A stretch of DNA of 64,000 nt from an uncultured bacterium. GTDB lineage: Bacteria > Sysuimicrobiota > Sysuimicrobiia > Sysuimicrobiales > Sysuimicrobiaceae. The translations under genes were made by a program, and so were the position numbers. The DNA lies in contig CAYTFH010000002.1 of assembly GCA_964437095.1 (NCBI GenBank), positions 14,627-78,626 of the forward strand, written 5' to 3'. The stretch's first letter is position 1. The number at the start of each line of letters is the position of its first letter. Shown in pieces: positions 5,342-21,029 of the stretch. The notes beneath the pieces are model-generated. The model did not search any database. It saw only the letters and a list, made by a program, of their open reading frames with translations, and was not told the DNA's origin.

Positions 5342-6310
5342 GTGGAAGCGTCCAAGCCCTCCGGACACGCACCGGCCGGACCTGACGTCCGCCACCTCGT
5401 CGGTGCCCTGCTCGGCGCTGCCTCCTTCCTGCTCCTGGCGGCGCCCGCCCTGGCCCTTCCCGTGCAGGGCCGGGTGGTCCACGGCGAGACGGGCCGGCCG
5501 GTGGCGGGCCTGGAGGTGCGGGTGGTGGGTATGCAGACCGGGCAGCCTCCGGTGGAGGTGGCCACCCGCACCGACCGGACCGGCTCCTTCCGGGTGGAGG
5601 TGGAGCCTGTTCGTAGGACGTACGTGGTGCAGGCCATCTACCAGGGCGTGGTATACACCTCGGGCCCCCACGCCGCGGGCCGGGGAGGTCTCGTGGTCCG
5701 GCTCGTGGTCTTCGAGGCCACGCGCCAGCCTCCAGCGCTCGCCTTGCGCCGCCGGGCCCTGCTGTTGGACCTGCAAGGCCCGTGGTTTTTGGTTCGGGAG
5801 GCGGTGGTGGTGTACAACCCCGGCCTCCGGACCTACGTGGGCGGTCAGGGCACGGCGGGCACGTGGCGGGTGCCGCTGCTGAGGGGGGCGGAGGACGTGC
5901 GGGTGGTGCGGGGGATGGTGCCTGCAGGCGTAGACCCGGACGGGGCGCTGGTGGACACCCTACCGGTGGTGCCCGGAGAGAGAACCGCGGTGCTGGCCTA
6001 CAGGGTGCGGGCCCGCGGCCCCTCACTCCTGGAACTCCCGCTGGGCTTGCCCACGGCCGCTTTGGACGTTTTCGTGACGGAGCCCCTGCGGGTGCGGTCC
6101 AAGGCCCTGGTCACCCGCGCAACACGGGTGGTGGAGGGCCAGAGGGTGACCTGGCATCACGCGGAGGGACTTGGCGGGGACGCGGTGGTGGCCATGGAGG
6201 TGGACGGCGTCCCTCCGCTGTCTAGGGGCATCCCCGTCGCCCTGGCCTCCCTGCTGGCGGTAGCGACGTGTGGCTTCGTGGCCTGGCCCTGGCTGAGGCG
6301 GCGCGGTTGA
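5342..6310 (+). CDS. hypothetical secreted, membrane-anchored protein (beta-sandwich, carboxypeptidase-regulatory-like repeats)
   Basis: ORF with a signal-peptide-like LVGALLGAASFLLLAAPALA, RVVHGETGRPVAGLEVRVVG...TGSFRVEV repeats and a C-terminal hydrophobic anchor. Immediately downstream of ccmFH. Start uncertain. Confidence 0.4.
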   Translation: MEASKPSGHAPAGPDVRHLVGALLGAASFLLLAAPALALPVQGRVVHGETGRPVAGLEVRVVGMQTGQPPVEVATRTDRTGSFRVEVEPVRRTYVVQAIYQGVVYTSGPHAAGRGGLVVRLVVFEATRQPPALALRRRALLLDLQGPWFLVREAVVVYNPGLRTYVGGQGTAGTWRVPLLRGAEDVRVVRGMVPAGVDPDGALVDTLPVVPGERTAVLAYRVRARGPSLLELPLGLPTAALDVFVTEPLRVRSKALVTRATRVVEGQRVTWHHAEGLGGDAVVAMEVDGVPPLSRGIPVALASLLAVATCGFVAWPWLRRRG

Positions 6311-6539
6311 TCTCCTCGGGCCAGCGTTTTACACTGCTACCGGTATGAGGGGTTCGCAGGACCTCCTGTTCGCGCCGCGGCAGTGCATCTGTCCTCGGCG
6401 GGGGCACGGGTGTGGCGCCTGCCACGCTGGCCCCCGCGTCGCCTGACCGCGCGCGGCCGTCCTCTCCCACAGCACCACCGCGTCCACCACAACTCCCGAC
6501 CGCGCGCCGGATCCCTGGACCAACGAGGAGGTGGTCTGG

Positions 6540-7610
6540 ATGCAGGGCGAACCAAGGCCGTCTGCTTTGGACTGCTGCCACGAGCTGTCCCGCGAGGAGC
6601 GCGAGGTCTTGCCCCGACGGCGGTTCCTGGCTTGGTTGGTGGCCGCGGGCCTGGCGGGGTGGATGGGCGTGCTTCGGCCGGCCCGGGCGCAGGGCCGCCG
6701 GCGGGTCCGGCTGGGCTTCTGCGGGCAGCTGCTGTGCGTGGTGCCCTACGAGGTGGCGCGCCACCACGGGTACTTCGCGGAGCAAGGGCTGGACGTGGAG
6801 CTGGTGTACTTCCGGGGCGGGGCCGCGGCCATGCAGGCCCTGGTGGGCGGGGCCGTGGACTACGCGGCCACGTCCTTCGACGTGGCGCTGTCCGCCTACG
6901 CCCGGGGCGCGCGCATCGTGCGGTTCTTCACCACCGGGCGGCTGCCCCTGTTCGCCCTGGTCACGGCACCCGGACAAGCGGGCCGCATCCGGCAGCTGGC
7001 CGACCTCGCAGGGCGCACCGTGGGGATCTCGGGGCTGGGCAACGCGGACCACGTGCTGGCCGTGTACCTCGCGCGCCGGGCGGGTGTGGACCCCCAGCAA
7101 GTGCGGTTCGCGGTGCTGGGGCCGAGCCTGTACGACGCCCTGCGGTTGGGGCACGTGGACGCGGGCATGGTACAGGAACCTGCCCTCACCCTACTGGTCC
7201 GCGCAGGAGGCAGGGTGCTGGCCAACCTCATGGACCTCAAGCAAGCCGAGCGGTGGCTGGGTGGCCCCTACGAGTTCATGGGGGTGGCGGTGCGCCGGGA
7301 CGAGTGGCAGGCTCGGGAGCCCGAGATGCGCGCCCTCGCCCGGGCGCTGAGCCGCGCCCTGCGGCTGGTACACTACGGAACGCCCAAGCTGGTGGTGCAG
7401 GCCCTGCCGCCCGAGCTGGTGGCGGGCGGCGACCGCGGGCTGTTCGAGGAGGTCCTGGCGCGCCACCGCAGGTCCCTGTACCCGCAGTCGGGCCGCATCG
7501 ACCTGGCGGCGGTGCGGCGCGTGGCGGAGCTGCAGGAGCAGGCGGGCGTGCTCGCGAGGGCCGTGGATCCCACGGAGCTGGTGACCAACGCCATCGTGGA
7601 GGGGCTGTGA
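6540..7610 (+). CDS. ABC transporter substrate-binding protein, NitT/TauT (SsuA/ThiY/NMT1-like) family, Tat signal
   Basis: RRRFLAWLVAAGLAG twin-arginine signal and NMT1/SsuA-like fold motifs. ATG is 8 nt after GAGGAGG. Confidence 0.7.
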   Translation: MQGEPRPSALDCCHELSREEREVLPRRRFLAWLVAAGLAGWMGVLRPARAQGRRRVRLGFCGQLLCVVPYEVARHHGYFAEQGLDVELVYFRGGAAAMQALVGGAVDYAATSFDVALSAYARGARIVRFFTTGRLPLFALVTAPGQAGRIRQLADLAGRTVGISGLGNADHVLAVYLARRAGVDPQQVRFAVLGPSLYDALRLGHVDAGMVQEPALTLLVRAGGRVLANLMDLKQAERWLGGPYEFMGVAVRRDEWQAREPEMRALARALSRALRLVHYGTPKLVVQALPPELVAGGDRGLFEEVLARHRRSLYPQSGRIDLAAVRRVAELQEQAGVLARAVDPTELVTNAIVEGL

Positions 7611-8386
7611 GCGCCCTGGCGGTGCGGGGTCTGCGGGTCCGCTACGGCGCGCACCGGGTGCTGGACGGGGTCGACCTGGAGGTGGAGCAGGGCGAGTTCG
7701 TGGGCCTGGTGGGGCCGTCGGGCTGCGGCAAGAGCACCCTGCTCCGGTGCGTGGCGGGCCTCGTGGAGCCTGAAGCAGGAGTGATCGAGGTGCTGGGCCG
7801 GCCCGTGCGCGGGCCCCAGCCGGAGGTGGGCATCCTGTTCCAGGACGACGCCTTGCTGCCGTGGAGGACCGCCGGGGAGAACGTGGCCTTGCCCTTGCGG
7901 TTCCGCGGGCGGTCGGGCCGGGAAGCCCGCGAAGAGGCGGAGGCTTGGCTAAAGCGGGTGGGCCTCGAGGGGTACGGGGACCACTACCCGTCGGAGCTGT
8001 CGGGCGGCATGCGCAAGCGGGTGGCCCTGGCGCAGGTGCTGGCCGCCCGCCCGCGGGTGCTGCTCATGGACGAGCCCTTCGCCAGCGTGGACGCCATCGT
8101 CCGGCACTTGCTGGAGGTGGACCTGCTGCGGCTGGTGGAGGAGGCGGGAACGTCCGTGCTGCTGGTGACCCACGAGCTGGAGGAAGCCATCAGCATGGCG
8201 GACCGCGTAGCGGTGCTGTCCGCGGGCCCTGCCGCGCGGATCGTGGACGTGTACCGGGTGCCCTTCGGCCGTCCCAGGGACCCCGTGGCGGTGCGGGCGG
8301 ATCCCGGCTTCGGCCCCCTGGTGGAGACCGTGTGGCACACTTTGCGGGCGGAGGTGGCCCGCATGGGCTGGGAGCTCACCGCATGA
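7607..8386 (+). CDS. ABC transporter ATP-binding protein (NitT/TauT family)
   Basis: Walker A GPSGCGKST, signature LSGGMRKRV and Walker B LLMDEPF. GTG start overlaps the upstream stop. Confidence 0.85.
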   Translation: MSALAVRGLRVRYGAHRVLDGVDLEVEQGEFVGLVGPSGCGKSTLLRCVAGLVEPEAGVIEVLGRPVRGPQPEVGILFQDDALLPWRTAGENVALPLRFRGRSGREAREEAEAWLKRVGLEGYGDHYPSELSGGMRKRVALAQVLAARPRVLLMDEPFASVDAIVRHLLEVDLLRLVEEAGTSVLLVTHELEEAISMADRVAVLSAGPAARIVDVYRVPFGRPRDPVAVRADPGFGPLVETVWHTLRAEVARMGWELTA

Positions 8387-9186
8387 GCCGGCTGGTGGCG
8401 GGCGTGCTGTTGCTCGGAAGCTGGGAGCTGGCCTCCCGGCTGCGGTGGCTGGACCCGTTCCTGTTCCCCTCGCCGAGCGCGGTGGGCTGGGTGCTGTACG
8501 AGCTGGCCCGTACGGGACAGGTCTGGGGGCACCTGAGGGTCACGGTGTGGGAAGCGGTGGCGGGCCTGGGGCTGGGTACCGCGGTGGGGGCGGTTCTGGG
8601 GTTGGTGTGCGCCACCTTCCGGCCCTTGGCGCAGGTGGTGGAGCCCGCCATGGCGCTGCTCAACGCCGTCCCCCGGGTGATCCTGGCACCCCTGTTCGTC
8701 ATCTGGTTCGGCATCGGCGCGGCCTCCAAGGTGGCCCTGAGCTTCCTGCTGGTCATGGTGGTGATGTTCTTCGCCACGTACTCCGGCATCCGGGAGGTGG
8801 ACCCCCGGTTGGTGGAGCGCATCCGCACCCTGGGCGGCGGACGGCGGGAGGTGGTGCGGGAGGTGCACGTCCCTTCCGTGACCGCCTGGGTGGCCAGCGG
8901 CCTGAAGGTGGCGGTGGGGTTCGCGTTTACCGGCGCGGTGGTGGGGGAGTTCGTGGCCTCCAGCCAGGGCCTGGGCTACCTCCTATCCTTCGCGCAGAGC
9001 ACGTACAACGCGCCCCTCACCCTGGCCCTCATCGCTTTGGTGGTGGGGGTCATCCTCCTGCTGTTCTACGCCTTCGGGCGGCTGGAACGGTGGTGGCTGC
9101 GGTGGAAGCCGCAGTACCGAGGTGCCCGCCGCCCTGGCCCGCAGGCGGCGGGCCCTGCGGTTCAGCCTGCGGAGCAGTCGCCGTAG
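8383..9186 (+). CDS. ABC transporter permease (NitT/TauT family)
   Basis: Six-TM BPD-transporter permease. ATG overlaps the upstream TGA (ATGA). Confidence 0.8.
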   Translation: MSRLVAGVLLLGSWELASRLRWLDPFLFPSPSAVGWVLYELARTGQVWGHLRVTVWEAVAGLGLGTAVGAVLGLVCATFRPLAQVVEPAMALLNAVPRVILAPLFVIWFGIGAASKVALSFLLVMVVMFFATYSGIREVDPRLVERIRTLGGGRREVVREVHVPSVTAWVASGLKVAVGFAFTGAVVGEFVASSQGLGYLLSFAQSTYNAPLTLALIALVVGVILLLFYAFGRLERWWLRWKPQYRGARRPGPQAAGPAVQPAEQSP

Positions 9187-9226
9187 GAAAGGCGGGGGGC
9201 CGAACGCCCCCGCCACGGGCCGCGGC

Positions 9227-9727
9227 TCACGCCTGGACCGCCTGCTGGCCGCTGCGCAGGCCGAGGACGCCCGCCAGCAGCACCGCCAGCACCACGCCCC
9301 AGGCCAGCACCGGCTCCGCGGGCAACCGCAGCCCCAGCACAGGTTCCAGGGCGTACGCGCCCGGCCCCGCCAGGGCCACGGCCACGGCTGCCGCGCTGGC
9401 TATCAGCGGGTACTCATACCCGCCGTTCTGCACCCACAGCCCGTTCCGGGCGTGGACCAGCGCGATGGCCACGGCCATGACGGCCACCATCAGCACCGCG
9501 GCCACGGGCACCAGCAGGCCGAGGGCCAGCAGAGCACCGCCCACGAACTTTGCGAGCCCGGCCGCAAGCGCCCACAGCCGCCCGGGCCGCAGCCCGAGCT
9601 GCTCCATCCACGCCCCGGTCTTGCCGAGGCCGTCGCCGCCGAACCAGCCGAACAGCTTCTGGGCCCCGTGCCCGACGAACAGGAGCCCGAGGACGGCACG
9701 AGGGATCAACAAGCCCAGGTCCAGCAT
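9227..9727 (-). CDS. DoxX family membrane protein
   Basis: RAVLGLLFVGHGAQKLFGWFGG DoxX signature. Four predicted TMs. Confidence 0.7.
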   Translation of the reverse strand: MLDLGLLIPRAVLGLLFVGHGAQKLFGWFGGDGLGKTGAWMEQLGLRPGRLWALAAGLAKFVGGALLALGLLVPVAAVLMVAVMAVAIALVHARNGLWVQNGGYEYPLIASAAAVAVALAGPGAYALEPVLGLRLPAEPVLAWGVVLAVLLAGVLGLRSGQQAVQA

Positions 9728-9789
9728 CGACCTCACCCCCTTTCGTCGTCACGGGTGGCGGGGTGGGAAGCACCGCCCCGCCGCGAGGA

Positions 9790-10122
9790 TCAGGCGGCGA
9801 GTTCCACCGGGACCTTCTTGGGCAGCAACTTCTGCTCGACCGGGATCCGGATCTCCAGGATCCCGTCCCGCCACTGGGCCCGCGCCTGCGCGGCGTCCAG
9901 CCCGGCGGGAAGGGTCACGGTACGCTCAAACCGCCCGCTGGGAATGCCCAGGACCACCACGTCGTCCCGGGGCACGTCCAGCGCCTTCCGCTCCCCGCGG
10001 ACCGTGAGGGTGTTCGGGCCCACCCGGATGTCCACGGCCTTCGGGTCCACCCCGGCCAGGTCCAGGCGGACCACGAAGTGGCCGTCGGCGAAGTAGGCGT
10101 CCATGGCGGGCACGAACGCCAC
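9790..10122 (-). CDS. Hsp20/alpha-crystallin family small heat shock protein (short form)
   Basis: PAMDAYFADGHFVVRLDLAGVDPKAVDIRVGPNTLTVRGERK...WRDGILEIRIPV is an alpha-crystallin domain. The start is constrained by the upstream gene stop at 10152; the N-terminus is unusually short. Confidence 0.6.
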   Translation of the reverse strand: MAFVPAMDAYFADGHFVVRLDLAGVDPKAVDIRVGPNTLTVRGERKALDVPRDDVVVLGIPSGRFERTVTLPAGLDAAQARAQWRDGILEIRIPVEQKLLPKKVPVELAA

Positions 10123-10151
10123 GTCCGCGGTGCCGTGAAATGCCGGGCGGG

Positions 10152-11012
10152 TTATTCCCGCACCCTCCCGGGGCCCCGGGTGGGCGCGGGCCGCGGGGCG
10201 GGGGGCGTGTACGGGATGGGGGCGTACTCCACGGACGGCCTGCGGGGCCCGGCCTGGGGGTACAGGGCCATGAGGCGGTGGACCTCCTCGGGCATGTCCG
10301 TGCTCACCTTCAAGCCCAGCTCCCGGGCCTCCTCCACGGTGATGGGGTAGTCGTGGGTCCAGCGCCCGCAGCTGAGGGCTTCGGCCACGGCGTCCGCGCG
10401 CTCGGGGGGCATCTTGTCGGACAGCAGCTCCCGCACCGCGTGCCGCACCTGCCGCAGGGGCTTCTCCGCCACGTCCGCCAACATCACCGTCTGGTCGTCC
10501 ACCTCGTTGATGTTCTTCCGCTCCAGGACCTTGAGCACGGACGCCGCGGGGTACTGGCCCAGCTGCGGGTCCACGGGGCCCAGCCCCGCGTGGGGGTCCA
10601 TGACGATCTCGTCCGCGGCCAGGGCGATGAGGGTGCCGCCGGACATGGCGTAGTGGGGCACGAACACCGTGACCTTCCCCCGGTGGGCCTGCAGGGCCCT
10701 GGCGATCTGCTCCGCGGCCAGCACCAGCCCCCCAGGGGTGTGCAGGATGAGGTCGATGGGCATCTCCGGCGCGGTGAACCGCACCGCCCGCGGCACCGCC
10801 TCGGAGTCGTCGATGTCGATGTAGCGCACCAAGGGGAAGCCCAGCAGGCTCATGGTCTCCTGCCGGTGGATCATGGCGATGACCCGGGAGCCCCGGGCGC
10901 GCTCCAGCTGGTGGATCAGGCGCAGGCGGGCGGCCTCCAGCCACCGCCGCTGCAGGACCGGCTGCAGGGCGGAGGCGATGAAGAACAGCCACAGGATATC
11001 CAGAGCCGTCAC
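10152..11012 (-). CDS. SDH-family (ClpP-fold) serine protease
   Basis: LWLFFIASALQPVLQRRWLEAARLRLIHQLERARGSRVIAMIHRQE...PIDLILHTPGGLV matches the SDH/S49-like Clp-fold protease family. GTG start at 11012 after AGGAGGG. Confidence 0.65.
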   Translation of the reverse strand: MTALDILWLFFIASALQPVLQRRWLEAARLRLIHQLERARGSRVIAMIHRQETMSLLGFPLVRYIDIDDSEAVPRAVRFTAPEMPIDLILHTPGGLVLAAEQIARALQAHRGKVTVFVPHYAMSGGTLIALAADEIVMDPHAGLGPVDPQLGQYPAASVLKVLERKNINEVDDQTVMLADVAEKPLRQVRHAVRELLSDKMPPERADAVAEALSCGRWTHDYPITVEEARELGLKVSTDMPEEVHRLMALYPQAGPRRPSVEYAPIPYTPPAPRPAPTRGPGRVRE

Positions 11013-11023
11013 GGTCCCTCCTC

Positions 11024-11045
11024 TGTCAAGTCGCAGGACTTGACG
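11024..11045. promoter_or_regulatory. HAIR-like dyad in the divergent region between the SDH-protease/hsp20 operon and the PRC/BON gene
   Basis: TGTCAAG-tcgcagga-CTTGACG uses the same half-site as the hspR operator. It lies just upstream of the protease RBS. Confidence 0.45.
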
Positions 11046-11103
11046 GACCCCGGAGGGCCCCGCACACTGGAGGCGGGAGGAGTATACCGCGGAGGGCGGG
11101 AGG

Positions 11104-12537
11104 ATGAGCACGAGGGAGCGTTCCGCGCGGTTGGAGATCCATCCCGGAGCCGTGGTCCACGCCCCCGAGGGCGTGGCGGGCCGCGTAGCGGAGGTGGTGG
11201 TGAGCCCGCGGGAGCGCCGGGTGGTGGCCCTGGTGGTGGAGCTCGGCTCCGGCCGACCCGTGGTGGTGCCGGCGGAATCGGTGGAGGACGCCACGGAGGA
11301 GGCCGTGCGGGTGCGGGCCTCCGTGGCGGAGCTGGAGCGGCTGCCGGCCTGGCAGGCGGAGGCGCACGCGCCCGCGGCGCTGTCGTGGCCTGGGTGGAGG
11401 GCCCTGCGGCAGGGGGGTGCGTGGCTGCCCCTGCCGGGGTCGTTGCGGCGCATGGAGGGGCTGCAGCGGCAACTTTCGGGTCAAGCCGTAGTACGGCCGG
11501 AGGAGCCGTTCGCGATCATCCGGCGCGGGCAGCGGGTGGTGGCCAGCGACGGCGCCATCGGCCGCGTGGACCAAGTACTGGTGGACGCCGCCACGGGCCA
11601 GGTGAAGCACCTGGTGGTGCGTCAGGGGTTGCTGTTCTCCCGAGACGTGGCCGTCCCCGCGGACTGGGTGAGCACCATCGAGGACGGGGTGGTGGTGCTG
11701 GAGGCTTCCCGGGACGCGGTGGCGCGCCTGCCCGTGTGCCGGCCCGACGACGAGCTGGAGCGGGACGTGGAGGAAGCCCTGCAGCGGGAGGAGCTGTTGC
11801 GGGTCCTGGCGGTGCCCGTGCGGCCGGAGGTGGTCGACGGGGTGGTGCGGCTGCGGGGCCACGTGCACAGCCGGGCCCTGGCCGCGCGGGCGGAGGAGGT
11901 GGCGCGGTCGGTGCCGGGTGTGGTGGAGGTCTGCAACGAGCTGGTGGTGGACCACGAGCTGCTGCAACAGGTGGTGGCCTCCGTGCAGGCGGATCCGGCC
12001 ACCCGGCACCTGGCGGGATACTCCCTGCGGGTGCGGGACGGGGTGGTGGAGCTTACGGGCAGTGTGCCTTCCCTGGAGGCGGCGCGGGCCCTGGAGCGGG
12101 CCATCGCCCGGGTGCCCGGGGTGCGGGGGATCGCCAACCACATGACGGGCCTGGACGTCCCGCCCACGTGGCGGCAGGTGGTGCAGCCGGAAGTGGGCCG
12201 ACCAGTGTACGCCACGGACCAGGAGCTGGGCCGGGTGGAGGCGGTGGTGGTGGACCCCGACAACCGCCGGGTGCAGGCCGTGGTGGTGGCGGGCGAGTTC
12301 CCGGACGCGGGTGTGTTGCCCTTCGCCGCGGGACCCCTGTGGGAGCGCCGGGTGGTGATCCCCTTGGAGGACGTGGAGCGCGTAACCCCTGGGGGCGTGT
12401 TCCTGCGGGTTCACGCGGGTGAGGCCGCGGAGCGGCCGGACCTGCGCGAGGAGGACTACCCGCCCGCGCCGCCTTCATGGGTCCCGCCCTTCCCCTACGG
12501 GTCCGGGCAGGTCCGGTGGCCCGCGAAGACCGGATAG
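11104..12537 (+). CDS. stress protein with three PRC-barrel and two BON domains
   Basis: Repeated xVxAxDGxxGRVxxVxVDxxxxRVxxLVV PRC-barrel motifs (three copies) and BON-like VRLRGHVHSRALAARAEEVARSVPGVVEVCNELVV segments. Confidence 0.6.
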   Translation: MSTRERSARLEIHPGAVVHAPEGVAGRVAEVVVSPRERRVVALVVELGSGRPVVVPAESVEDATEEAVRVRASVAELERLPAWQAEAHAPAALSWPGWRALRQGGAWLPLPGSLRRMEGLQRQLSGQAVVRPEEPFAIIRRGQRVVASDGAIGRVDQVLVDAATGQVKHLVVRQGLLFSRDVAVPADWVSTIEDGVVVLEASRDAVARLPVCRPDDELERDVEEALQREELLRVLAVPVRPEVVDGVVRLRGHVHSRALAARAEEVARSVPGVVEVCNELVVDHELLQQVVASVQADPATRHLAGYSLRVRDGVVELTGSVPSLEAARALERAIARVPGVRGIANHMTGLDVPPTWRQVVQPEVGRPVYATDQELGRVEAVVVDPDNRRVQAVVVAGEFPDAGVLPFAAGPLWERRVVIPLEDVERVTPGGVFLRVHAGEAAERPDLREEDYPPAPPSWVPPFPYGSGQVRWPAKTG

Positions 12538-12543
12538 ATGCAC

Positions 12544-12584
12544 TGTCAAGAGACTTGACAATACCATTGTCAACCACGTAGCCT
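12544..12584 (+). promoter_or_regulatory. hspR-dnaK operon promoter with overlapping HAIR-like inverted repeats (putative HspR operator)
   Basis: TGTCAAG-aga-CTTGACA-atacca-TTGTCAA: CTTGACA-N7-TGTCAAC mirrors the HAIR consensus CTTGAGT-N7-ACTCAAG. -35 TTGACA (12555-12560), 18-nt spacer, -10-like TAGCCT (12579-12584). Confidence 0.6.
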
Positions 12585-12616
12585 GGGGTCGGAAGCTGGC
12601 AGCGAGGGATTGAGCC

Positions 12617-12937
12617 GTGGCGGAGCGGACCTACCGGCGGGACGAGGTGCCGGTGTACGTGATCAGCGTGGCCGCGGAGCTGGCGGGGGTGCACCCCCGC
12701 ACCCTCCGGATCTACGAGGCCAAGGGGCTGATCCGGCCCGCCCGGCGGAAGCACATCCGGCTGTTCAGCGAGCGGGACGTGCAGCGGGTGCGGCTGATCC
12801 AGTACCTGACCCAGGAGGTGGGGCTGAACCTGGCGGGGGTGCGGCTGTTCCTGGAGATCCAGGAACGCCACGAGGAGGTGGCGCAGTGGTTGCTGGAGCT
12901 TTGCGACACCCAAACGGAAAGGAGGGAGCGGCGATGA
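12617..12937 (+). CDS. hspR: MerR-family heat-shock transcriptional repressor HspR-like
   Basis: [52 protein letters not shown] is a MerR HTH. The gene is first in the dnaK operon and an HAIR-like dyad lies upstream. Confidence 0.8.
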
Positions 12938-13386
12938 GCATCCTGCGGTGGGACCCCTTCGAGGAGCTGCGGGAGATGCAGCGGTCCTTGGACCGCCTGT
13001 TCGACGAGTTGTCGGGCCGGCGGCCGCTGCGGCGTCGGGAGGCGCGGGAGCCCGTGGTGTGGGAGCCCGCGGTGGAGGTGTACGAGACGGACCAGGAGGT
13101 GGTGGTCCGGGCGGAGCTGCCCGGCGTGGACCCTAAGAACGTGAACGTGACCGTGCAGGACAACACCGTGACCATCGAGGCGGAGGCCAAGGAGGAGCAG
13201 GAGGAGCGGGGTCGCACCTACCTGCGCCGGGAGCTGCGCTACGGCCAGTTCTGCCGGAGCCTGACGCTGCCCGCGGAGGTGCGGGCGGACGCGGCCAAGG
13301 CCACCTACCGCAACGGTGTGCTGGAGCTGCGCGTGCCCAAGAGCGAGCGCGCGAAGCCCAAGCAGGTGAAGGTGGAGGTGAGCTGA
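12934..13386 (+). CDS. Hsp20/alpha-crystallin family small heat shock protein
   Basis: [25 protein letters not shown]...[32 protein letters not shown]...LELRVPK. ATG overlaps the hspR stop (ATGA) and follows GGAGGGAG. Confidence 0.9.
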
Positions 13387-13393
13387 CCAAGCA

Positions 13394-13426
13394 CGCGGGG
13401 CGGCCCCGCCGCGGGGCCGCCCCGCG
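13394..13426 (+). other. perfect 31-33 nt GC palindrome (stable hairpin) between hsp20 and dnaK, no U tract
   Basis: GCGGGGCGGCCCCGC-C-GCGGGGCCGCCCCGC is exactly self-complementary (stem of about 15 bp) and is followed by GAGGGAGGGAG (the dnaK RBS). Confidence 0.7.
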
Positions 13427-13440
13427 AGGGAGGGAGTGAC

Positions 13441-15324
13441 ATGGGCAGGGTTGTCGGCATCGATCTGGGTACCACCAACTCGGTCATCGCGGCCATGGTG
13501 GGTGGAGAGCCCGTGGTGATCCCCAACCGGGAGGGCAGCCGCCTCACCCCGTCCGTGGTGGCCTTCACCAAGACCGGGGAGCGCCTGGTGGGGCAGATGG
13601 CCAAGCGGCAGGCCATCCTCAACCCCGAGAACACCATCTACTCCATCAAGCGCTTCATGGGGCGCCGCTTCCACGAGGTGGAGACGGAGCGGAAGATGGT
13701 GCCCTACAAGGTGGTGGAGGGCCAGCACGGCATGGCGGTGGTGGACATCCCCGCCGCGGGCCGCACCTTCACCCCTGAGGAGATCTCCGCCATGATCCTC
13801 CAGAAGCTGAAGGAGGACGCGGAGGCTTACCTGGGGGAGAAGGTGGAGGCGGCGGTGATCACCGTGCCCGCGTACTTCAACGACGCCCAGCGCACCGCCA
13901 CCAAGAACGCGGGGGAGATCGCGGGGCTCAAGGTGTTGCGGATCATCAACGAGCCCACCGCCGCCTGCCTGGCCTACGGGCTGGACAAGAAGGGCTCGGA
14001 GACGGTGCTGGTGTGGGACCTGGGAGGCGGGACCTTCGACGTCTCCGTCCTGGAGATCGGGGAAGGGGTGTTCCAGGTGCGGGCCACCGCGGGGGACACC
14101 CACCTGGGCGGGGACGACTGGGACGAGCGCATCGTGAACTGGCTGGCGGAGGAGTTCCGCAAGCAGCACGGCATCGACCTCCGCCAGGACCGGCAGGCCC
14201 TGCAGCGGCTGCGGGAGGCCGCGGAGCGGGCCAAGATCGAGCTCAGCGCCATGGTGCAGACCACCATCAACCTGCCCTTCATCACCGCGGACGCCACGGG
14301 GCCCAAGCACCTGGACATGGTGCTCACTCGGGCCAAGTTCGAGGAGCTCACCGCGGACCTGGTGGAGCGGTGCATCGGGCCCTTCCGTCAGGCCCTGCAG
14401 GACGCCAAGCTCAGCGAGCGGGACCTGCACGAGGTCATCCTGGTGGGCGGCAGCACCCGCATGCCCATGATCCAGGAGCTGGTGCGCCGGCTCACGGGGA
14501 AGGAGCCCAACAAGGAGGTCCACCCGGACGAGGTGGTGGCCGTGGGCGCGGCCATCCAGGCGGGGGTGCTGGCGGGTGAGGTGCGGGACGTGGTGCTCCT
14601 GGACGTCACCCCCCTGTCCCTGGGCATCGAGACCCTGGGCGGGGTCATGACGGTCCTCATCCCGCGGAACACCACCATCCCCACCCGGAAGAGCGAGACC
14701 TTCACCACCGCGGAGGACGGCCAGACCCAGGTGGAGATCCACGTGCTGCAGGGCGAGCGGCCCATGGCCCGGGACAACCGCACCCTGGGCCGGTTCATCC
14801 TGGACGGCATCCCGCCCGCGCCGCGGGGGGTGCCCAAGATCGAGGTCACCTTCGACATCGACGCCAACGGCATCCTGGCGGTGTCCGCCAAGGACCTGGC
14901 CACGGGCCGCGAGCAGTCCATCAAGATCACCGGCACCTCCACCCTCACCCGGGAGGAGGTGGAGCGGATGATCAAGGAGGCGGAGGCCCACGCGGAGGAG
15001 GACCGCCGCAAGCGCGAAGAGGCGGAGATCCTCAACCGCGGGGACAGCCTGGCCTACCAGACGGAGCGGCTGCTGCGGGACCAGGCCAAGGGCGTGTCGG
15101 AAGCCGAGCGGCGGGAGCTGGAGCAGAAGGTGGCGGAGCTCCGGCAGGCGGTGCAGGCCCGGGACGTCCAGCGGGTGCGGCAGCTGTCGGAGGAGGTGCA
15201 GCGCCTCACCTACAAGCTCAGTGAGCTGCTGTACCGCGGTGCGGCCAGTGGGGCCAGCACCGGCGGCGGTCAGAGCAAGGGGGACGGGGAGGTCATCGAC
15301 GCGGACTACAAGCCCAGCGACTAG
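13441..15324 (+). CDS. dnaK: molecular chaperone DnaK (Hsp70)
   Basis: [25 protein letters not shown] and [12 protein letters not shown] Hsp70 signatures; 627 aa. Confidence 0.97.
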
Positions 15325-19518: not shown

Positions 19519-19905
19519 TCAGCCGTACCCGAGCTCCTCCAGGCGGTCCTCGTCCAGGCCGAAGTAGTGGCCCAGCTCGTGCAGCACGGTCCTGCGGATC
19601 TCCTCCCGCAGGCCGTCCTCGCTGTCGTAGGCGTCCTCCAGGGGCCCCTGGAAGAGGGTGATGCGGTCCGGCAGCAGGGGAGGCTCGATGCCGCGCTCCG
19701 GCAGGGGTGTGCCCTCGTACAGGCCGAACAGCACCCCGTCCTCGGGCAGGCCCACGGACGCCAGCTGTTCGGGGGTGGGCCAGTCCTCCACCACCACGTG
19801 CACGTTCTGGAGGGCGCGGCGGAACGGCTCGGGCACCTCCGCCAGGGCCTCTTCCACCAGTCGCCGGAAGCGCCTGCGGCTGAGGCGCACGGTGACCCCC
19901 TTCAC
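19519..19905 (-). CDS. small zinc metallopeptidase-like protein (minimal MMP-like family)
   Basis: HELGHYFG HExxH motif in a 128-aa protein. Confidence 0.55.
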   Translation of the reverse strand: MKGVTVRLSRRRFRRLVEEALAEVPEPFRRALQNVHVVVEDWPTPEQLASVGLPEDGVLFGLYEGTPLPERGIEPPLLPDRITLFQGPLEDAYDSEDGLREEIRRTVLHELGHYFGLDEDRLEELGYG

Positions 19906-21029
19906 GGCCGCGCCTCAGCCCGCAAGGCGGCCGCGGGCACGGGCAGCCCGCAGCCCCGGAGCCGCTCCAGCCGGCCGTACAGATCCTCCAGGCTGTCCGC
20001 GCACACGGTCACGTGGCCCACCTTGCGCCCCGGCCGCACCGCCTTCCCGTACCAGTGGAAGTGGGTACCGGGGACCCGGAGGATGGGGGAGGGATCGGGG
20101 CGCTCGCCGATGAGGTTCACCATGGCGCAGCAGGTCCAGGGCCGGGTGGAACCCAAGGGGAGGCCCGCCACCGCCCGCACGTGGTTGGCGAACTGGCTGG
20201 TCTGGGTGCCCTCGATGGTCCAGTGGCCGGAGTTGTGCACCCGGGGCGCCATCTCGTTGGCCAGGAGTCCTGCGTCCGTTTCGAACAGCTCCAGGCAGAG
20301 GACGCCCACGTAGTCGAGGGCCTCCAGGGCACGCCGGGCGTACGCTTCCGCCGCCTCCGCCACACCTGCGGGGAGCTCTGGCGCCGGAGCCAGGGACAGG
20401 CGCAGGATCCCGCCTTCGTGGTGGTTCTCCACCACGGGGTAGCAGGCCACGTCGCCCGAGGCGCCGCGCACGGCCAGGACAGACAGCTCCCTGCGGAAGG
20501 CCACGAACTCCTCCACCACGAGAGGCCGGCCGCCCAGGACCTGCCACGCCGCGTCCACCTCCTGGGGCCGTTGCACCACCCGCTGCCCCTTCCCGTCGTA
20601 GCCCAGACTGCGGGTCTTCACCACGGCGGGCAGGCCCACCTGTTGCACCGCCTCGCGCAGGTCTTCCAGGGAGTCGACGGGCGAAAACCTTGCGGTGGGG
20701 ATCCCCAGGGAACGGAAGAACCGCTTCTCTGCCAGCCGGTCCTGCGCCACCTCCAGAGCCCTGGGGGGTGGGTGGACGGGGAGCCTGCGGGCCAGCTGCA
20801 CAGCCGTCTCCACGGGCACGTTCTCGAACTCGTACGTGACCCGGTGGCAGGTGCTCGCCAGCTCCTCCAGCGCCCGGGGGTCGCCGAACTCCGCCCGCAG
20901 GTGCAGCCCCACCGCGGCGGCACACGGGTCCTCCGCGGGATCCAGGTACGTGAACTGCAGGCCCAGGGGCAACCCCGCGAGACCCAGCATGCGGCCCAGC
21001 TGGCCGCCGCCCAGCACCCCGATCCTCAC
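19902..21029 (-). CDS. purK: N5-carboxyaminoimidazole ribonucleotide synthase PurK
   Basis: [15 protein letters not shown] start and an ATP-grasp fold. Overlaps the purE stop. Confidence 0.9.

Follow-up and report, generated by a model that had tools for sequence, protein, structure and literature searches.

A conserved dyad shared by divergent PRC/BON and SDH-type protease genes in a heat-shock neighbourhood of Sysuimicrobiota is a candidate operator

The described operators that come closest to the DNA element reported here are the SoxR box, the RheA operator and the operator of HspR. The SoxR box, CCTCAAG-TTAA-CTTGAGG, is an operator of the MerR family with a spacer of 4 nt, and it is located between the −35 and −10 elements of a promoter that itself has a 19-nt spacer. 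RheA of Streptomyces albus represses the small heat-shock gene hsp18 via TGTCATC-N5-GATGACA, which lies in the intergenic region between the divergent genes for the regulator and the small heat-shock protein (sHsp). The HspR-associated inverted repeat (HAIR) of Streptomyces, Mycobacterium and Helicobacter has been published as CTTGAGT-N7-ACTCAAG (PMC6102357), with the minimal form TTGAGY-N7-ACTCAA (PMC2687793). In Helicobacter pylori, HspR covers 70–80 bp and binds cooperatively beside a nucleating HAIR (PMC6102357). The present element is the dyad TGTCAAG-N8-CTTGACG, found in a stretch of 64,000 nt (contig CAYTFH010000002.1, hereafter “the window”) of an uncultured hot-spring bacterium. It lies between a plus-strand gene for a protein with PRC-barrel and BON domains (PRC/BON) and a minus-strand gene for an SDH-type serine protease.

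The dyad resembles each of these operators in part. Like HAIR, it has a CTTGA/TCAAG core, overlaps a predicted promoter and neighbours an hspR-dnaK-clpB cluster, but its arms stand in the opposite order (TCAAG...CTTGA), its spacer has 8 nt, and its cores do not fall into the 12-nt phase of the TGWCA arrays of hspR promoters that are described below. The arm order is that of the SoxR box, the site of a MerR-family dimer; the 8-nt spacer differs from that site, and so does the position, which would span a −35 element together with the adjoining upstream DNA. Like the RheA operator, it is a palindrome of the type TGTCA...TGACA between divergent stress genes, whereas spacing and arm letters differ. 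A RheA-like gene was not noticed near the locus, although no search was aimed at one. An operator-like dyad at a PRC/BON promoter and in an SDH leader, inside a heat-shock neighbourhood, is previously undescribed.

The original prediction had placed the dyad at 11024–11045, and it was found there letter for letter. The arms can be extended to 11 nt with one mismatch (11022–11032 and 11037–11047). With up to one mismatch allowed, GTCAAG-N8-CTTGAC occurs once in the 64-kb window, compared to 0.06 occurrences expected from shuffles. The exact core was looked for in 93 loci (labelled L001, L002, etc.), and other counts were made on 80 species-level SDH loci. Besides the window, 11 related loci contain it (10 distinct sequences); the remaining 82 of the 93 lack it. 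Among the 12 unique PRC/BON-proximal sequences, GTCAAG and TTGAC are invariant and the spacer length is always 8 nt, while the spacer letters are free and the seventh base of the right arm is variable. The motif TCAAG-Nx-CTTGA was counted across the 80 SDH loci and the window (about 661 kb): eight instances have N8, and every other spacing is represented at most once. These results indicate that the dyad is a real, selected cis-element common to two divergent genes, and no chance match. Its conservation in relatives is a stronger argument for this than the shuffle statistics.

The promoters and transcription starts around the dyad were predicted from conserved blocks (Table 1). In the PRC/BON direction, all relatives contain GTCAAG-N8-cTTGACn, followed at 17–18 nt by (C/G/A)ACA(C/T)T-GGgAGG, and the right arm of the dyad would be the −35 element. 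On the SDH strand, the block CCGCGGTATACTCGTCCCGCC is kept in all relatives. Extra DNA sits between PRC/BON and SDH in five loci (L001, L002, L003, L081, and L086), and in these split genomes the TATACT block remains beside SDH and is missing from the PRC/BON leader. Because the block stays with SDH when the two genes separate, TATACT is best read as the −10 element of the SDH gene. Two transcription units would start back to back near 11074–11075, and the dyad would occupy about +27 to +50 of the SDH leader, its last base directly preceding the ribosome-binding site. The motif CTTGACA was also considered as a −35 element for SDH and was ruled out: its distance to the start codon varies between 12 and 20 nt, and the ribosome-binding site and the start codon fill the place of a −10 element.

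The split genomes reveal a duplication of the dyad. In the four of them that contain both sides (L001, L002, L003, and L086), PRC/BON and SDH each retain a copy; L081 is a short contig covering the SDH side only. Full dyads are present on the PRC/BON side at L001 3632, L002 2820, and L086 2922, and the L003 copy has GTTGAC. The SDH-side copies read aTCAAr-N8-CTTGACA, and the PRC/BON −10 element next to them has decayed. Together with the conservation described above, the copy beside each separated gene bears out the earlier claim that the dyad is common to both divergent genes. The locus L094 has neither PRC/BON nor the dyad, and it retains TATACT and the SDH gene. As L094 misses both, the dyad travels with the PRC/BON promoter.

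The core GTCAAG-N8-CTTGAC is probably, though by no means certainly, the operator of a dimeric DNA-binding regulator other than HspR, acting primarily on the PRC/BON promoter. The upstream arm GTCAAG is retained by PRC/BON in L001, L002, L003, and L086, where SDH is not adjacent. Because this arm is invariant where no promoter role is conceivable, the dyad bears the signature of a protein-binding site. A bound protein would cover the −35 element of PRC/BON and might also block elongation into SDH, so that one site would control both genes. Repression seems likelier than activation, since the site includes a −35 element close to the consensus. The dyad centre is about 41 nt upstream of the predicted PRC/BON start, a position that would fit a class II activator, too.

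A scheme without any dedicated regulator is quite improbable, although both arms read cTTGAC outward to a gene, like back-to-back −35 elements. The right arm would then be a plain −35 element, in agreement with its variable seventh base, and the left arm would be a feature of promoter architecture, i.e. a second contact for RNA polymerase or sigma factor, or the relic of a divergent −35 element. An inverted TGTCAA is found upstream of the −35 element at the hspR promoter as well. However, the left arm is unable to serve a promoter, as it is followed by a ribosome-binding site and a start codon and by no −10 element. Moreover, it is invariant at the fixed N8 distance where no gene starts leftward (L001–L003 and L086), and the remaining intergenic TTGAC sites of the window have no inverted partner.

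Several observations weigh against an operator. Except for hspR, no candidate regulator gene lies near the locus. A consensus promoter scan of 9000–14000 found no promoter, and the −10 assignments derive from conservation only. The SDH-proximal copy has N7 instead of N8 in L002 and L081, which makes it less convincing that the dyad is required by SDH itself. The dyad-bearing genomes effectively represent one evolutionary origin, i.e. one shallow clade with SDH proteins of 87–95% identity, and the more distant L009 and L089 have no dyad despite the same divergent gene pair.

We also analysed whether the dyad is read as RNA. It would then fold into a hairpin within the 5′ leader of SDH, beside the ribosome-binding site, and exert a thermometer-like control of translation, possibly involving upstream anti-Shine-Dalgarno CCUCC stretches. 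The minus-strand leader of the window can indeed fold the dyad into an 8-bp hairpin and pair the Shine-Dalgarno sequence with an upstream CCUCC (−37 kcal/mol), but this fold is no better than those of shuffled sequences (z = −1.72; 10 of 200 shuffles equal it). Single-sequence folds of either strand at the dyad were not significant. The block CCGCCTCC is kept early in the leader, and at stem position 7 the U-A pair of the window is replaced by C-G in L007; nevertheless, RNAalifold on the SDH leader yielded only −7.6 kcal/mol, no compensatory pairs, and a covariation term that was positive. The stem extensions are missing in L005 and L006, G-to-A changes in L001–L003 produce uncompensated A-C mismatches, and the SDH leader has no Rfam match. 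The split arrangement retains a dyad upstream of the PRC/BON start, outside of the SDH leader. A function as an RNA element is thus barely credible. The lack of compensatory pairs and the uncompensated G-to-A changes in one arm favour a read-out of the DNA sequence over an RNA stem.

The DNA between the separated genes contains a coding sequence of its own. In one sub-clade, PRC/BON and SDH are separated by an inserted gene that encodes a coiled-coil protein (L002 2755–4001 and L003 1584–2584). The protein starts with MGFTVTDLADLLRLLEERPEWKNALR and contains AEAQRRTEERVGRLEQALAEL repeats in variable number; it has no significant Pfam family. Remnants of the gene are found in L001 (3576–4001) and L086 (2545–3001), in which it is frameshifted or decayed. 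L081 has the gene at 1–222.

If the dyad is an operator, HspR has to be considered as its reader. The original prediction had called the dyad HAIR-like and had assigned the genes on both sides to an HspR regulon. For comparison, 16 hspR promoters were analysed, of which 12 belong to the close clade and 4 to different lineages of Sysuimicrobiota; the set consists of the window and 15 others (from L001–L007, L085–L092, L094, L096, L098, and L100). In all 16, three or four TGWCA cores recur with a period of exactly 12 nt, and one of the cores falls within the −35 element TTGACA. The central base, and hence the orientation of the core, varies, e.g. TGTCA-TGACA-TGACA in L004 and L094 and TGACA-TGACA-TGTCA-TGACA in L098. 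In the window, the hspR promoter includes CTTGACA-N7-TGTCAAC (12554–12574), which has HAIR geometry, and a third half-site is found 3 nt upstream. The HspR operator of Sysuimicrobiota appears to be a variant of HAIR in which nearly self-complementary cores are arrayed in phase. In the literature searched, no description of a phased TGWCA array as a HAIR variant was found. The definition of the array makes it possible to predict HspR regulons in Sysuimicrobiota genomes.

The dyad shares its heptamers with this promoter, as had been predicted: TGTCAAG (12544–12550) and CTTGACA (12554–12560) precede the HspR-like gene, and the dyad and the hspR promoter are the only two places of the window at which heptamers of this type are paired. 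The placement of the dyad also resembles that of HAIR, i.e. it overlaps the predicted PRC/BON promoter, lies in the protease leader and stands beside the hspR-dnaK-clpB cluster. The layout does not agree. The arms are swapped, so that CTTGA is not on the outside left, and N8 replaces the N7 between the heptamers of HAIR, a spacer that corresponds to pentamer cores set 12 nt apart. The cores are 17 nt apart, in contrast to the 12-nt period of all 16 arrays, which places them about half a helical turn out of register. In addition, the TGWCA core is not conserved in the dyad: the left core is CGTCA in L003 and L005, and only 4 of 12 sequences have A as the last base of the right core. Invariance in the dyad falls on AAG and CTT of GTCAAG and CTTGAC, the very positions that vary in the hspR arrays, which conserve TGWCA. 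Outer half-sites that would complete HAIR units at the dyad arms were looked for, and none are present or conserved. Judged by its letters, the dyad falls outside the definition of HAIR, and the label HAIR-like has to be given up. The simplest account of the common heptamer is that two palindromes have been laid on the −35 consensus cTTGACa.

It is unlikely, yet to be taken seriously, that the dyad is nevertheless an HspR operator and that PRC/BON, SDH and the hsp20 remnant downstream of SDH are derepressed by heat together with hspR-hsp20-dnaK-grpE-dnaJ-clpB. The differences in arm order, spacer, core spacing and conserved letters, as well as the lack of outer half-sites, argue against this. 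Apart from the identical heptamers, it is favoured by the gene context: hspR is only 1.5 kb away, directly downstream of PRC/BON with no predicted terminator between them, and the two genes are adjacent in every dyad-bearing relative that could be checked. In L094, SDH-hsp20-DoxX diverges from hspR over 176 bp that contain the hspR array. HspR of H. pylori offers a precedent for non-canonical flanking contacts (PMC6102357). Of the predicted HspR regulon module, the heat-shock neighbourhood and the arrangement in L094 hold up, while the layout of the dyad does not fit the HspR arrays. A wider proposal, to which we give slightly less credence still, is that HspR or a recruited partner reads the heptamer in two geometries, i.e. 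as TGWCA arrays and as an everted dyad. This would couple SDH, PRC/BON and DnaK/ClpB, and SDH would be a class of heat-shock protease that acts alongside sHsps in several phyla.

Table 1. Features of the window around the dyad
Feature	Position	Strand	Remarks
DoxX gene	9227–9736	minus	
Short hsp20 open reading frame	9790–10104	minus	5′-truncated; alpha-crystallin domain and C-terminal tail
Junction of the ~275-bp deletion (approximate)	10130–10140	minus	Window aligned with L005, L006, L001, and L002
SDH-type ClpP-fold serine protease gene	10152–11012	minus	286 amino acids; GTG start at 11012; hydrophobic N-terminus
Shine-Dalgarno sequence of SDH	11016–11023	minus	GAGGAGGG; kept in relatives
Dyad TGTCAAG-N8-CTTGACG	11024–11045	both	Candidate operator; core GTCAAG-N8-CTTGAC at 11025–11044
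Predicted −35 element of PRC/BON	11040–11045	plus	TTGACG, right arm of the dyad
Predicted −10 element of PRC/BON	11063–11068	plus	CACACT, 17 nt after the −35 element; (C/G/A)ACA(C/T)T kept at 17–18 nt in 12 unique relatives, spacer varying
Predicted −10 element of SDH	11081–11086	minus	TATACT; GGTATACTCGTCCCGCC kept in all relatives, also in L094
Shine-Dalgarno sequence of PRC/BON	11091–11096	plus	GGAGGG
PRC/BON gene	11104–12537	plus	477 amino acids; 3 PRC-barrel and 2 BON stretches
hspR promoter array	12544–12574	plus	TGTCA (12544), TGACA (12556), TGTCA (12568); 12-nt period
−35 element of the hspR promoter	12555–12560	plus	TTGACA
Predicted −10 element of the hspR promoter	12579–12584	plus	TAGCCT
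Gene for the HspR-like MerR-family regulator	12617–12937	plus	106 amino acids; first gene of hspR-hsp20-dnaK-grpE-dnaJ-clpB

The window has a G+C content of 72%, and the genomes closest to it belong to Candidatus Sysuimicrobiota (formerly CSP1-3), a phylum described in PMC11604079 on the basis of 112 genomes. One of the closest genomes is that of Ca. Tepidifontimicrobium thermophilum, with an SDH protein 93% identical to that of the window. The identities predicted for SDH, Hsp20 and PRC/BON, the latter with three PRC and two BON stretches, were borne out by profile matches. For PRC/BON, the E-values are 4.1e-21 (Pfam PRC) and 9.3e-20 (BON). Downstream of PRC/BON on the plus strand follow hspR, a 150-codon hsp20, dnaK, grpE, a dnaJ-like gene, and clpB. 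The best match of the HspR-like protein is NF047375 (HspR) with 92.5 bits, below the cut-off of 105, and the next unrelated model, ZntR, reaches 40.6 bits. The protein has a MerR-type helix-turn-helix (MerR_1, E = 6.7e-18), and its gene shares the operon with dnaK, grpE and dnaJ. The gap between PRC/BON and hspR is 80 bp (12537–12617), and no terminator was predicted between the two genes in a scan of 9000–14000. Because the gap is that short and contains no predicted terminator, transcripts from the PRC/BON promoter may read through into the hspR-dnaK-clpB operon. Directly after clpB, on the opposite strand, lies a gene for a putative metallopeptidase of the Zincin_1 family (19519–19914, minus).

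The SDH protein is a full-length member of the SDH-type (PF01972) proteases, which are compared here together with the NfeD/STOPP membrane proteases. It matches PF01972 with E = 1.7e-116 and 388.7 bits (cut-off 31.3) over profile positions 14–277 of 286, and NCBIfam NF047768 with 424.9 bits (cut-off 250). It also resembles the N-terminal domain of NfeD1b (PF25145, E = 8.3e-13). None of the solved structures matches the window protein by sequence, and its exact sequence is not on record. In the literature searched, neither a physiological role nor a regulator was found described for SDH-type proteases.

Gene context links the SDH protease to heat stress. In L094 (GCA_031432545.1; SDH 81% identical), DoxX, a 143-codon hsp20 and SDH (5736–8291) diverge directly from hspR-hsp20-dnaK-grpE-dnaJ-clpB. 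Between SDH and hspR lie 176 bp with the hspR array and the TATACT of SDH; PRC/BON is not present there, and the SDH leader is short. An hsp20 gene is found at a distance of up to 4 kb from SDH in 14 of the 80 species-level loci, and these 14 represent about six independent groups. Dehalococcoidia have hsp20-rhomboid-SDH on one strand (L016 2745–4870, also L017–L019 and L029), and deltaproteobacterial genomes have three tandem hsp20 genes followed by SDH (L051 2205–4849, and L039). No HAIR-like or CIRCE-like element (controlling inverted repeat of chaperone expression) was recognised upstream of the hsp20-SDH clusters of these two groups. In Thermotogota, a membrane “ClpP class serine protease” family, which may be PF01972, and a rhomboid protease are among the gene families whose presence follows growth temperature (PMC11719638). 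A testable hypothesis is that SDH-type proteases, a widespread class, act in protein quality control at high temperature. It is founded on the candidate operator shared with the PRC/BON stress gene, the divergence from hspR in a sister lineage, and the recurrent hsp20 and rhomboid neighbours elsewhere. In all of these cases, including the window, the link of SDH with hsp20 and hspR is one of gene context only.

The original prediction had also proposed that SDH and a minimal Hsp20 form a minus-strand operon and would be an uncharacterised chaperone-protease pair. The Hsp20 of the window has an alpha-crystallin domain (Pfam HSP20 PF00011, E = 2.9e-16, 59.9 bits, cut-off 20.8), which starts about seven residues after the methionine. 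The reading frame has 104 codons from the ATG at 10104, with alternative GTG starts at 10113 and 10122, and no Shine-Dalgarno sequence was found upstream of these start codons. Like other sHsps without an N-terminal region, the protein would keep a C-terminal V-P-V (IXI-type) motif along with its alpha-crystallin domain; it differs from them in that it originated from a deletion that also took the ribosome-binding site and the leader. Full-length hsp20 genes with 143–144 codons (MLVRRTSPFAEIAALQRELSNLFDRIFGSE...) follow SDH in L005, L006, L081, L085, L087, L088, and L094. They have an intergenic leader of about 200 nt with a Shine-Dalgarno sequence of its own, and the L005 and L006 orthologues encode 144 amino acids. 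Compared to these genes, the window has lost about 275 bp, which begin 17 nt past the stop codon of SDH and extend into hsp20 as far as about codon 27. The structured leader, the ribosome-binding site, the start codon and about 27 N-terminal codons went with them.

The adjacency of the two genes is unstable among close relatives; its absence from related genomes had been named in the original prediction as a result that would count against it. A full-length hsp20 is present in seven distinct relatives and none in six, and the truncated form is found in the window only. The gene is wholly gone in L001, L002, and L086, and together with DoxX in L003, L007, and L090. The comparison marks the region downstream of SDH as a deletion hot-spot, and the aligned sequences identify the short Hsp20 as a deletion remnant that is so far unique to the window genome. 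For the remaining hsp20 domain, the ratio of nonsynonymous to synonymous substitution rates (dN/dS) on the window branch is about 0.2, the same as for SDH, as estimated from pairwise values. The deletion is either recent or tolerated. The SDH-Hsp20 “operon” of the window is a by-product of a deletion that joined two genes, and it does not reflect a conserved chaperone-protease design. The attractive pair of a minimal chaperone and a protease is an artefact of this event.

The leader that was lost in the window at about 10135 has features of its own in the relatives. It is located at L005 1100–1312, L006 4853–5067, L081 1259–1460, and L094 6760–7000 (minus), and it is also present in L085, L087, and L088. 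No Rfam match was obtained for it. The L005 leader folds with −123.5 kcal/mol (z = −3.18); none of 200 shuffles was as good. RNAalifold on five leaders yielded −77 kcal/mol and seven compensatory pairs. Within a block that is unpaired and invariant, CCACCTCCTCAC, there is a perfect complement to the hsp20 Shine-Dalgarno sequence GAGGAGGTG, which follows about 85 nt downstream. The hsp20 leader of the relatives is a candidate for an RNA thermometer or another element of translational control.

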